From Halobacteriaceae archaeon (lineage in GTDB: Archaea > Halobacteriota > Halobacteria > Halobacteriales > Halobacteriaceae): a DNA stretch of 64,000 nt. The DNA lies in contig JBDGTS010000016.1 in NCBI GenBank assembly GCA_042216675.1, positions 1 through 64,000 of the forward strand. Direction: 5' to 3'. The notes under the pieces were generated by a model, which did not search any database, had not been told where the DNA came from, and saw nothing but the letters and a program-made list of their open reading frames with translations. A program made the position numbers and the translations under genes. This document shows, piece by piece, positions 56,670 to 58,968 of this stretch (position 1 is the stretch's first letter; each line of letters starts with the position of its first letter).

Positions 56670-58778
56670 ATGGGCGCTCCGCCGACCACCGAGGGTGGGA
56701 CTATCGCCTTCAGCGCCCGGGACGACCCCCCGGGGCTGGTGGTGAGAGACCGCATCGAGCAACACAAGTACACCCTCAACGCGTCCGACTCCGTCTCGCC
56801 GCGCGCCGTCGACACCGAGCGGTTCGTCTTCCCCGTCGACGCCGCCACGGCGATCTCCACCGCCGAGATTCGACTGCCGACTGTCGTCATCACCTGCATT
56901 CGCGACGCCGTGGGGGACACCGTCGCCCGCACGGAACACAGCGCCGAGGTGTCGCTCCCCCCCGACGCGTACGAACTCGAACTCCACGCGCCGATTCGGA
57001 TGTACCTCCGCGTCGAGAGCGGCGTCGACGTCGTCGCCGACGGCGAACACACCCGCATCGACTTCGGTGACGAGACGACCGTCGAGGTGGGCGTGCGCTC
57101 GGACCACGAGCGACCCGCCGCGACGGTCCAGACCACGTCGGACCCGCGGGACCTGATGCGTGCCGTCTCGACGTTCGGGTCCGCGCTCAAGACCACCTCG
57201 CCGGAGCGCGCGTTCCCGACGTTCCGCGGGCACCCGCCGGCGGTCGAACTCGCCGACGAGTTCTCGGTGCCGGCCGAAGTCGAGCCACCTGATACCGGGG
57301 TGACAATCGAGGTGCCCCCGGAGCGCCGCTACGTCTACGTCGTGGCGCCACTTGCGTACTACCTCGGTGCGACCGTCGAACCGGGCGAGACGCCCCGCCT
57401 CGTCACTGACGCGGGCTTCGAGTACGAGTTGGGCGCCGACCGCGCGTTCGAGCAGTCCGTCGAGCGAGTGCTCAAGCAGGTGTTCGTCCTCGACTGCGTG
57501 ACCCGCACCGAGGGCCTCTACGAGGTGTCGTTCAAGACGCGGCAGGCCCTCGCCGACGACATCGACTTCGACCCCGCCGTGGCCTACGACCGACCGCTCG
57601 CGGAGCGACTCGAAACGTACCTCGCCGAGGAGTACGACGCGATAGAGCCGGCGATTCCGGACTGGAAGCTCACCTCCCACGTCTCGCTGGATCCGACCTC
57701 CGCCGAGACGCTCCCGTATCTCGTCAACGACCTCGCCATCGTCCGGACGCCCGGTTCGACGTCCGCGGCGTCCTCTCCCTCCGCGAAGGCGGCCATCGAC
57801 GAGTTCCTCCGCGACGGCGACTCGTTCGTCCGCTCCACCACCGACGGCGGCACGGCGGTGGACCGCGACTTCGTGCAGGCCGACGAGGAGGACGCCCTCG
57901 AACACGCGTGGGTCGGCGAGGAGACGCCCGTCGGCATGAGCAAGGTCACGGAGACGGCCTATCAGCACCAGTTCGACCGGGAGCCGACGGACGGCGACAT
58001 CGAGATTACGGTCGTCTGCAACGACCCGGAGATGGCGGCCGAACAGGACCTGCTCCAGACCGTCTACGGCACCCGCGAGCGTCTGCCGTTCGACATCGAG
58101 TTCGAGGAGGGCCTGCCCACCGACGCACTCCGCGAGACGCTCGCGGCGGACGTGGACTTCCTCCACTACGTCGGGCACATCGACGACGGCGGCTTCCGGT
58201 GCCCCGACGGCGTCCTCGACGCCACCACCCTCGACGAGGTGGGCGTCGACGCCTTCCTGCTGAACGCCTGCCAGTCCTACGACCAAGGGCTCGGACTCAT
58301 CAACGCGGGCGCCATCGCCGGCATCACGACGCTCAGCGACGTGCCGAACGAGGCGGCCGTCGAGATGGGCTACACGATTTCGCGCCTGCTGAACTCCGGG
58401 TTCCCGATTCGGGGCGCACTGGAAGTCGCGAAGGAGGAACACATCATCGGGAGCCAGTACGTCGTCGTCGGCGACGGCGGGATGACGATTACGCAGGCGG
58501 AGAGCGGAACCGCGCAACTGTACGAACTAGAGCGGACGGACGACGGATTCGCCCTCGACATCATCGGCTACGCGTCGTCGAACTTCGGAATGGGGGCACT
58601 GTTCACGCCGTTCATCAGCGACGACGCGCCGTACTATCTCAACTCCGGGCACCTCGACCGGTTCGAACTGACCGCCGAGGAACTATCCGAGTTCCTGATG
58701 ATGGAGAACGTGCCGGTCCGTTTCGACGGCGAACTGCACTGGAGTTACGACCTCTCTGTTAGCGCACTCGACGACTGA
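56670..58778 (+). CDS. 702-aa protein with C-terminal CHAT/caspase-like (clan CD) domain
   Basis: DFLHYVGH...DG.L...AFLLNACQS...GLINAGA..TL.DV.NEAA...LL.SG.PI..AL..A...YVVVGD follows the CHAT consensus; His codon 58176, Cys codon 58269; N-terminal ~430 aa unassigned. Confidence 0.75.
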   Translation: MGAPPTTEGGTIAFSARDDPPGLVVRDRIEQHKYTLNASDSVSPRAVDTERFVFPVDAATAISTAEIRLPTVVITCIRDAVGDTVARTEHSAEVSLPPDAYELELHAPIRMYLRVESGVDVVADGEHTRIDFGDETTVEVGVRSDHERPAATVQTTSDPRDLMRAVSTFGSALKTTSPERAFPTFRGHPPAVELADEFSVPAEVEPPDTGVTIEVPPERRYVYVVAPLAYYLGATVEPGETPRLVTDAGFEYELGADRAFEQSVERVLKQVFVLDCVTRTEGLYEVSFKTRQALADDIDFDPAVAYDRPLAERLETYLAEEYDAIEPAIPDWKLTSHVSLDPTSAETLPYLVNDLAIVRTPGSTSAASSPSAKAAIDEFLRDGDSFVRSTTDGGTAVDRDFVQADEEDALEHAWVGEETPVGMSKVTETAYQHQFDREPTDGDIEITVVCNDPEMAAEQDLLQTVYGTRERLPFDIEFEEGLPTDALRETLAADVDFLHYVGHIDDGGFRCPDGVLDATTLDEVGVDAFLLNACQSYDQGLGLINAGAIAGITTLSDVPNEAAVEMGYTISRLLNSGFPIRGALEVAKEEHIIGSQYVVVGDGGMTITQAESGTAQLYELERTDDGFALDIIGYASSNFGMGALFTPFISDDAPYYLNSGHLDRFELTAEELSEFLMMENVPVRFDGELHWSYDLSVSALDD

Positions 58779-58790
58779 CTGGCCGGCCGG

Positions 58791-58916
58791 TCACCGAATC
58801 GTCCCGCCACTCGCCGCGACGGCGCTCCCTGCCTGCGACAGGAGCATCATGACCATGAACAGCTTCGCGAGCAGTTTGGGGTGATTCTTGAGTCGGGCTG
58901 CGATGGTATCGGACAT
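58791..58916 (-). CDS. 41-aa secreted micropeptide precursor (signal peptide plus 6-7 residue tail), absent from the ORF track
   Basis: MSDTIAARLKNHPKLLAKLFMVMMLLSQAGSAVAASGGTIR*; basic n-region, hydrophobic core, AVA-A cleavage motif; AT-rich promoter immediately upstream. Confidence 0.8.
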   Translation of the reverse strand: MSDTIAARLKNHPKLLAKLFMVMMLLSQAGSAVAASGGTIR

Positions 58917-58968
58917 TGCAACCCTTTATTTTTCCGTGACTGTATTATAATTATTTAAAGGTTTACTA
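58917..58968 (-). promoter_or_regulatory. AT-rich promoter of the micropeptide gene
   Basis: Minus strand reads CCTTTAAATAATTATAATACAG; TTATAA (58945-58950) lies about 30 nt upstream of ATG 58916; among the most AT-rich patches in the window. Confidence 0.65.

Follow-up and report, generated by a model that had tools for sequence, protein, structure and literature searches.

Locus and Gene Layout

The window analyzed here is a stretch of 64,000 nucleotides (nt) from a Halobacteriaceae archaeon (assembly GCA_042216675.1, contig JBDGTS010000016.1, positions 1 to 64,000), whose genome assembly of 2.15 Mb consists of 58 contigs and is 80% complete. It carries a pair of convergent genes: a large gene encoding a 702-amino acid protein with a predicted CHAT/caspase-like fold in its C-terminal part, and a 41-codon gene of the DUF7503 family on the opposite strand that encodes a leader followed by a very short tail (table 1). 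The genome contains one copy of each gene. Across the class, the DUF7503 and CHAT-fold genes form a conserved one-to-one two-gene module, and the best interpretation is that a CHAT protease is gated by, or processes, its cognate peptide.

An earlier reading of the same DNA, made from the letters and the open reading frames (ORFs) and referred to here as the sequence-only reading, had proposed a 41-codon minus-strand gene at 58916..58791, a distance of 12 nt between its stop codon and that of the 702-amino acid gene, an AT-rich TATA promoter for the small gene, and the motifs LHYVGH and LLNACQS in the large protein. All four features were found at the locus. The AT-rich block is kept across 116 unique upstream sequences, in which the AT fraction is 0.93-0.98 at positions -38 to -29 from the ATG and 0.22-0.28 at positions -22 to -18. 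The position of the block fits an archaeal TATA box followed by a nearly leaderless transcript and represents a promoter-like element of the small gene's own.

Table 1. Features of the convergent gene pair and of related loci; positions are those of the window unless a locus is named.
Feature	Position	Strand	Basis
702-amino acid CHAT-fold protein gene, large partner	56670..58778	+	ORF
N-terminal beta-sandwich and alpha/beta region, residues 12-362	56703..57755	+	Separate AF2 model
Disordered linker of the large protein, residues 363-425	57756-57944	+	Model
CHAT/caspase-like domain, residues 445-601	58002..58472	+	Secondary structure, Foldseek
Codons of the catalytic dyad	His503 58176-58178 (LHYVGH); Cys534 58269-58271 (LLNACQS)	+	
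C-terminal beta-domain, residues 610-702, predicted tail-docking site	58497..58775	+	Complex prediction
Spacer of 12 nt separating the convergent stop codons	58779..58790		
41-codon DUF7503 gene including stop codon, small partner, MSDTIAARLKNHPKLLAKLFMVMMLLSQAGSAVAASGGTIR	58791..58916	-	Pfam PF24335
Tail/core, residues 35-41, ASGGTIR, hypervariable, non-Gly-Pro "TIx" type	58794..58814	-	Alignment
Leader, residues 1-34, MSDTIAARLKNHPKLLAKLFMVMMLLSQAGSAVA, conserved, signal-peptide-like	58815..58916	-	Alignment
AT-rich promoter region of the small gene	58917..58975	-	TATA-like block 58944-58954, ~28-38 nt 5' of the ATG
Bat-type response regulator, divergent neighbor, two reading frames	59270..61113	+	Pfam
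Haloplanus repeat precursors	L126:8061-8627, L127:8061-8357, L089:3744-3881, L014:3561-3770	-	
Haloplanus repeat precursor	L017:1058-1501	+	

Conservation of the Gene Pair across the Halobacteria

The distribution of the two genes was determined in a class sample of 301 Halobacteria genomes, and their arrangement was analyzed in 80 loci from named genomes, in which a DUF7503 gene was scored if it was convergent with the large gene and located within 450 nt of its stop codon. The large-protein family is present in 277 of the 301 genomes and DUF7503 in 253, with Haloferax volcanii as a positive control in the DUF7503 search; the 20 genomes listed as lacking the large protein are all absent from the DUF7503-positive genomes as well. 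Every one of the 30 best DUF7503 loci is convergent with a homolog of the large protein. In the reverse direction, 23 of the 29 best large-protein loci contain a convergent DUF7503 gene, and the other six consist of five loci of a single genus (g47) with a repeat precursor instead (discussed below) and one weak match at a locus edge.

Among the named loci, the convergent DUF7503 gene was found in 71 out of 80. The other nine comprise two Natronomonas loci with DUF7503 ~1.4 kb further on and on the same strand, three Haloplanus loci with the repeat form, two Halococcus loci with a third form, one locus that is masked by N and still ends in ...CSGNAGP, and one contig that is too short to tell. 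The pairing also holds for paralogs: in five genomes that contain three to six copies each, 21 of the 22 DUF7503 copies adjoin their own large paralog. In most homologous loci the two stop codons are separated by -4 to +12 nt (range -21 to +206), and the adjacency is kept over 10 families of the class. The co-occurrence that the sequence-only reading had asked to be checked across the Halobacteria is thus real and conserved, and its concern that homologs of the large protein might usually lack an adjacent micropeptide does not apply to the named loci. One DUF7503 copy of the 22 (L173, G189:C1:1879258-1882374) has no large-protein homolog within 1.5 kb and is a possible orphan precursor.

The Small Gene Encodes a Conserved Leader and a Variable Tail

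Short ORFs are frequent in this GC-rich DNA (57 of at least 30 amino acids in 8 kb) and a 41-codon ORF on its own lies within chance expectation. The small protein, however, matches the Pfam family DUF7503 (PF24335) with an E-value of 3.6e-14 and a score of 52.5 bits (cut-off 27), and the match is full-length (residues 3-40 of the protein, positions 2-39 of the 42 in the model). The family comprises 1785 clusters in the protein database. The GC content of the ORF by codon position (0.585/0.463/0.805) follows a coding pattern. Codon changes were counted in 139 close homolog pairs of the small gene: leader codons carry 1210 synonymous and 815 non-synonymous changes (of 4972 codons), tail codons 265 synonymous and 454 non-synonymous changes (of 973), and the terminal Gly-Pro codons 163 synonymous changes and not a single non-synonymous one (of 278). 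The small ORF is considered a real gene because of the family match, the coding GC pattern, and the Gly-Pro codons that are free of non-synonymous changes, and the counts for leader, tail, and Gly-Pro codons indicate that it is translated and under selection, with a tail body that is free to vary and a tail end that is fixed.

The family consensus reads MS-x(4-9)-YLxxHP[RK]M-xGVLFTxxLLLSQAG-x[AV]AA-(variable)-GP. Within the leader, P13 and F20 are invariant and L9, L19, L25, L26, Q28, G30, and A34 are conserved at 90% or more. The apolar core of the leader is 12-13 residues long in 106 of 116 sequences, the N-terminal region has a net charge of zero or below in most sequences, and the tail is preceded by Ala or Val at position -3 and Ala at -1 in 98 of 112. 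These values were compared with a Sec-type signal (charged N-region, hydrophobic region of 7-15 residues, small residues at -3 and -1). The small product has a signal-peptide-like layout, as the sequence-only reading had described, but the conservation of the leader lies far above that of a generic Sec signal. Since the conservation exceeds that of an ordinary signal peptide, it suggests that something recognizes the leader. Alternative assignments of the leader as a class III (pilin-type) signal, an archaeosortase substrate, or a lipobox were rejected by eye because the motifs are absent.

In 109 of 112 sequences the tail comprises 7-10 residues; it is rich in Gly, Ala, Pro, Thr, Ser, and Asn and almost free of charged residues (Asp and Glu 0.8%, Lys and Arg 1.1%). 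A terminal Gly-Pro, present in 97 of 112 sequences, is a hallmark of the family and not a formal criterion for membership, and related minority endings (TID, TIS, and SIS) occur in other lineages. The sequence-only reading had predicted the release of a hexapeptide from the window's precursor. A short tail after an AxA-type site is indeed present, but the alignment places the cut after AVA, and the likely product is the heptapeptide ASGGTIR and not necessarily a hexapeptide. The more general view of the small product as a leader with a short, variable, and functionally selected tail agrees with the alignment, the codon changes, and the repeat precursors of Haloplanus.

Repeat Precursors in Haloplanus

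In several Haloplanus loci (table 1) the slot 3' of the large gene is occupied by an ORF without any hydrophobic segment that consists of 13-amino acid units such as YTADGNSGGISGP, arranged in tandem in 2, 4, 6, 10, or 13 copies and ending in Gly-Pro. Tandem Repeats Finder identified 13 copies of a 39-nt unit with an 83% match. In the precursor of locus L126, 12 residues are identical across all 13 units while the codons differ synonymously at many sites, which argues that each unit is selected as a peptide.

Another Haloplanus species carries an ordinary DUF7503 protein (P0186, MSESDSGTVATYLKNN...TVAAGNSGAISGP). The repeat form starts MSESDSGTVAAS...TVADGNGGGISGP and retains the N-terminus and the TVA[A/D]-GN..SGP junction of P0186, with the hydrophobic part gone. 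Because N-terminus and junction are common to both, the repeat form is regarded as a derivative of DUF7503 in which the hydrophobic part was deleted, the residue preceding the core changed from Ala to Asp, and the core was multiplied. Haloplanus thus drops the hydrophobic leader and multiplies a tail unit that is under purifying selection, which points to the tail as the functional part of the protein. The sequence-only reading had proposed a Sec-type signal and an exported and re-imported peptide; the leaderless precursors show that export through Sec is not obligatory for the system, and as they carry repeated cores without a hydrophobic segment, release by endoproteolysis is expected.

A possible third form was observed in the same slot in Halococcus (L097:8016-8249(-) and L114:8016-8237(-)). 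The candidate ORF encodes 41 amino acids from a GTG start codon; its N-terminal half is acidic, and it finishes with a Cys-rich stretch (...FTVACCGVTDVSGASACTYSGP; ...ACTYSGP). The assignment is tentative, and the two loci belong to two related species.

The Large Protein Is a Predicted CHAT-Fold Protease

The 702-amino acid protein has no match at E <= 1 among the Pfam and NCBIfam models, including the Pfam CHAT model PF12770, and a profile search of the PDB returned nothing below an E-value of 0.25. The 2104 homologs found at E <= 1e-10 are mostly annotated as "hypothetical" and a few as "CHAT domain-containing" or "Caspase family". In an AlphaFold (AF2) model of the protein (predicted local distance difference test, pLDDT, 79.5; predicted template modeling score, pTM, 0.79), residues 12-155 form a beta-sandwich and residues 159-360 an alpha/beta region; a disordered linker (363-425) leads to an alpha/beta domain (445-601) and a C-terminal beta-domain (615-700). 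In a Foldseek search with the whole protein, the top match to the 445-601 region is the SAVED-CHAT protein 8tl0 (E 4.5e-7, probability 1.0), and further matches include separase (5fc2), the Craspase protein Csx29 (7xsq), DdvA (8rw5), gingipain (4ief), and MALT1 (7a41).

Among 55 homologs of 49-71% identity, residues H499, Y500, G502, H503, N532, C534, and S536 are invariant. In the model, H503 follows the strand 495-501 and C534 the strand 526-532, which is the arrangement of clan CD. On the basis of the model, the large protein has a clan CD/CHAT fold with an intact His/Cys dyad and is a putative cysteine protease. The CHAT/caspase-like C-terminus claimed by the sequence-only reading and the caspase-hemoglobinase fold that it had wanted confirmed are both supported by the Foldseek matches, and the former also by the invariant His and Cys residues, although the Pfam CHAT model did not match. 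The protein is taken to be cytoplasmic because no signal sequence was seen by eye.

Conservation is not limited to the protease domain. In the same 55 sequences G642, P682, and W691 of the C-terminal beta-domain are invariant, and the strongly conserved N-terminal part contains invariant residues that include R186-G187-H188-P189 and D275-C276. The N-terminal region reaches a pLDDT of 90 when it is modeled alone. A Foldseek search with this region gave weak beta-sandwich matches only (GH31 glucosidases, E 5.5e-4, TM about 0.2), and the matches to it in the ESM Atlas are confined to archaeal hypothetical clusters; neither search pointed to a function. The linker has a pLDDT of 30-42 and carries the invariant residues E411, W414, G416, P420, G422, and K425 at its C-terminal end; a role in autoprocessing or regulation is possible.

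Predicted Complex of the Tail and the C-Terminal Beta-Domain

A complex prediction for the small and the large protein gave an interface score (ipSAE) of 0.61 (individual runs 0.61, 0.56, and 0.64), and the best of three controls scored 0.00. Of 80 solved complexes 58 attain the pass mark for ipSAE, as do 2 of 110 mismatched pairs, rates that apply only roughly here because custom alignments were used. The runs have at least 62% of their contacts in common. On the side of the small protein the confident interface is formed by residues 33-41, that is the tail, and the leader is not placed by the model. On the side of the large protein it is formed by residues 610-616, 638-648, 655, 658, 675-681, and 692, together with 182-184 and 284, and the catalytic residues 503 and 534 lie outside the confident contacts. 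According to the prediction, the end of the tail adds a strand to the C-terminal beta-domain and docks there at a distance from the dyad. The sequence-only reading had assumed that the peptide acts through the N-terminal ~430 amino acids of its partner; a contact between tail and large protein is predicted, but it involves mainly the C-terminal beta-domain (610-692) and the N-terminal part only at 182-184 and 284.

The covariation between the tail type (Gly-Pro, n = 102; non-Gly-Pro, n = 15) and the large protein was analyzed by mutual information. Three interface residues (639, 645, and 646) are among the top 25 columns versus approximately one expected. The "TIx" ending of the tail occurs at three or more separate positions in the tree, and in pairs with this ending residue 645 is Phe or Tyr in 14 out of 14 and residue 182 is Phe or Leu in 13 out of 14; both residues are predicted contacts.

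Genes Surrounding the Pair

Two kinds of genes recur next to the pair. A gene of the family DUF7504 (PF24336, E 2.4e-51 at L062:5157-5867(+)) is located just upstream of the large gene and on the same strand in 35 of the 80 named loci. DUF7504 shows weak similarity to RecA/KaiC-like families (DUF7090 and PAXNEB) and has no relative in the PDB that was detectable by sequence, and a second upstream gene cluster (14 loci) is unrelated to it. The genome of the window contains seven DUF7504 copies, none of which adjoins the large gene. A gene for a complete five-domain alpha-L-rhamnosidase (53925-56618 (+)) was observed directly upstream of the large gene in the window, a place occupied by DUF7504 in many other genomes.

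The second kind is a response-regulator gene beyond the small gene, likewise found in 35 of the 80 named loci (18 of the REC-PAS and 17 of the REC-HalX type). The window matches this pattern with a Bat-type regulator that contains REC (weak), PAS, GAF, BAT, and HTH_10 domains. The regulator appears to be split between a frame at 59270-59923, which contains a truncated PAS and a REC match that does not reach the Pfam cut-off (26 bits), and a frame at 60016-61113 with GAF (from model position 18), BAT, and HTH_10; a frameshift, an assembly error, or two separate genes are possible explanations. Further downstream lie a gene for a 183-amino acid protein that Pfam does not recognize and that starts with a hydrophobic, signal-like stretch (61186-61737 (+)) and, after it, a gene for a 327-amino acid protein with a weak match to signal peptidase S26 (61754-62737 (+); 21.5 bits, just below the cut-off). 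The two may represent a secreted protein with a dedicated signal peptidase.

Overall, the conserved neighbors of the pair are DUF7504, response regulators, an aminotransferase, IMP dehydrogenase, and regulators of the Lrp and TrmB types. No exporter, peptide transporter, or peptide-modifying enzyme was found among the conserved neighbors tested, and no YcaO protein in the window's genome at its 80% completeness or in the 16 conserved neighbor clusters that were scanned with Pfam. Neither protein of the pair was matched by PADLOC.

Possible Mechanisms

The favored explanation, to which a rough probability of 40% is assigned, is that the tail peptide is freed, is bound by the cognate CHAT protease, and switches the protease. 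The short tail peptide would be the active entity. In the DUF7503 forms, signal peptidase would cut it from the leader at the AxA site, and endoproteolysis would release it in the leaderless multi-copy forms of Haloplanus; the freed tail would then be bound one-to-one by its cognate CHAT protein. Binding would turn the proteolytic activity on or off, making the pair a peptide-gated protease switch that might act within the cell or between cells and possibly feeds the adjoining response regulators.

Several observations weigh against this explanation. A working Sec leader would place the tail outside the cell while the protease, which has no signal sequence, stays inside; as a Sec-exported tail and a cytoplasmic protease lie apart, either re-import of the peptide or binding prior to export is needed. 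The strong conservation of the leader is also out of line with an ordinary signal peptide. The tail of the window itself ends in GGTIR and lacks the Gly-Pro that characterizes the family (the locus L168 shares the GGTIR ending). In the predicted complex the pLDDT of the binding partner is 49-55, and the partner's own fold is uncertain. The sequence-only reading had proposed to check if the tail varies in step with its partner, and residues 645 and 182 do track the "TIx" tails, but the covariation is weak overall and confounded by phylogeny, and F645 is also found together with Gly-Pro tails. Finally, three distant paralogs of the large protein (L147, L148, and L149; 34-35% identity) from genomes without DUF7503 have no recognizable small ORF with a Gly-Pro end downstream; these paralogs may act with another partner or alone.

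The main rival is tentative and is not mutually exclusive with the favored switch by a ligand. It holds that the neighboring precursor has the CHAT protein as its own, dedicated maturation enzyme, following the logic of bacteriocins and of ribosomally synthesized and post-translationally modified peptides (RiPPs): the protease would recognize the leader as well as the C-terminus of the core and cut the precursor, and the peptide would act elsewhere as a signal, an antimicrobial, or in another role. In its favor, the leader is conserved, the core is hypervariable, and the adjoining protease has an invariant dyad. The leaderless Haloplanus precursors need a cytoplasmic endoprotease for which the neighbor is the obvious candidate, and the change from Ala to Asp in front of the core, once the signal-like segment was lost, would suit an Asp-directed cut of the caspase type. 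The predicted interface moreover starts at residue 33, beside the AxA site. The same prediction, however, leaves residues 503 and 534 out of the confident contacts and docks the tail away from the dyad. A strict one-to-one pairing of precursors and paralogs would be unusual for a tolerant processing enzyme, and the DUF7503 forms carry Ala and not Asp in front of the core, in agreement with the rule for signal peptidase, so that one common cut is not evident. The conserved neighbors also lack the modifying enzymes and exporters of such systems.

An unlikely explanation is that no free peptide is formed and that the uncleaved micro-protein is a stable subunit of the protease, serving as a pseudosubstrate or a chaperone, much as securin does for separase, or as a membrane tether. 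The conserved adjacency and the predicted binding would be accounted for, the fold of the large protein is similar to that of separase, and a protein of 41-47 amino acids would be completed before it leaves the ribosome and would be cytoplasmic for a brief period. It is difficult to reconcile with Haloplanus, where 2-13 identical units without a hydrophobic segment are ill-suited to a single subunit or a tether, and a membrane leader with positive charge at the N-terminus would direct the tail outward and away from the protease. The least probable is that the two genes have no functional link, the small product being a membrane micro-protein or a peptide similar to type I toxins that happens to lie beside a protease gene, or that the pair belongs to an anti-virus defense island. 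The small protein is hydrophobic, the touching 3' ends of the convergent genes would permit antisense interference, and CHAT proteases are frequent in defense systems. Against this stand the adjacency across 10 families and for each paralog, the Haloplanus precursors that dispense with the hydrophobic part and keep and multiply the tail, the absence of a PADLOC match for either protein, and the presence of the genes in 277 and 253 of the 301 genomes, unlike the patchy distribution of defense islands.

Implications for Archaeal Peptide Signaling

Literature searches returned no paper on DUF7503 and none on a CHAT domain in haloarchaea or in Haloferax. A search for caspase homologs in archaea listed bacterial, plant, and fungal work only, with nothing on the large-protein family among the entries listed. 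As far as these searches show, neither an archaeal peptide signaling system nor a function for an archaeal CHAT/caspase-like protease has been described, and the peptide/CHAT-protease module of the haloarchaea is new, widespread, and experimentally tractable. It is present in most of the Halobacteria searched, including genetically tractable models, and it offers a peptide of ligand size, a defined predicted binding domain, and a catalytic dyad that can be mutated. If the peptide gates the protease, the module would add a new class of input for CHAT proteases and provide a concrete candidate mechanism for cell-cell communication in archaea, the chemical signal of which is still unidentified according to two studies (PMC12240190, PMC13464002).

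A more specific and rather doubtful proposal is that the DUF7503/CHAT pairs are an archaeal system of cell-to-cell peptide signaling, in which an uncharged peptide of ~9 residues would be released, taken up, and read by its cognate CHAT protein as receptor and output. Each pair would then define a "pherotype", and the paralogous pairs of one genome would represent parallel channels. In Haloferax volcanii, one study reports a secreted quorum signal for disk formation that is at most 3 kDa in size, is not inactivated by proteinase K, and can be extracted with ethyl acetate; a figure legend of the study includes autoclaved conditioned medium among its conditions, and the authors take the signal to be a small molecule rather than a large peptide (PMC12240190). 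The response pathway of the same species runs via a regulator with REC-HalX-GAF-BAT-HTH_10 architecture, as described in a second study (PMC13464002). A peptide of the DUF7503 type would be a candidate for this signal, as no more than a testable possibility.

Comparison with Known Systems

The closest parallel in gene arrangement is the RRNPP group of Firmicutes and phages (Rap-Phr, PlcR-PapR, and AimR-AimP). In both cases the small gene adjoins the gene of its cytoplasmic partner, encodes a signal-peptide-like leader with a very short C-terminal peptide, and differs in its peptide between the paralogous pairs of one genome. The receptor of the RRNPP systems is a TPR protein, whereas the haloarchaeal partner is a predicted CHAT-fold protease in which neither the Pfam nor the fold searches detected TPRs, and for this reason the haloarchaeal pair is not a member of the RRNPP group. 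The two also differ in that RRNPP genes form an operon, whereas the haloarchaeal genes are convergent, their leader is strongly conserved, and some lineages carry leaderless multi-copy precursors.

The precursors of RiPPs (cyanobactin type) and of the yeast alpha-factor combine a conserved leader with a hypervariable core and contain tandem cores as in Haloplanus. Tandem cores are, however, restricted to Haloplanus, and most DUF7503 members, including that of the window, carry just one core, located at the very C-terminus; genes for a heterocyclase, a macrocyclase, or a Kex2-like protease are missing among the conserved haloarchaeal neighbors.

Among proteases, SAVED-CHAT (type III CRISPR/CBASS) and the Craspase TPR-CHAT protein Csx29 have an accessory domain that receives the activating partner, and they have the protease fold and the His/Cys dyad in common with the large protein. 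Their ligands are cyclic oligonucleotides or an RNA-guided complex, whereas the haloarchaeal ligand is predicted to be a genome-encoded peptide on the C-terminal beta-domain, and their CRISPR/CBASS context is absent from the haloarchaeal locus, which matches neither PADLOC nor the Pfam CHAT model. Separase and securin provide a second case with a similar protease fold, in which the protease is bound by a small partner that is largely unstructured. As a pseudosubstrate, securin occupies and blocks the active site of separase, whereas the confident contacts predicted here avoid residues 503 and 534. DegS, in which a C-terminal peptide activates the protease and the ligand is a stress signal from misfolded proteins, is a serine protease with a PDZ domain and of unrelated fold, and its ligand does not come from a dedicated neighboring gene; its mode of binding nevertheless resembles the one predicted for the haloarchaeal pair, as the free C-terminus of a peptide is bound by strand addition outside the catalytic site.

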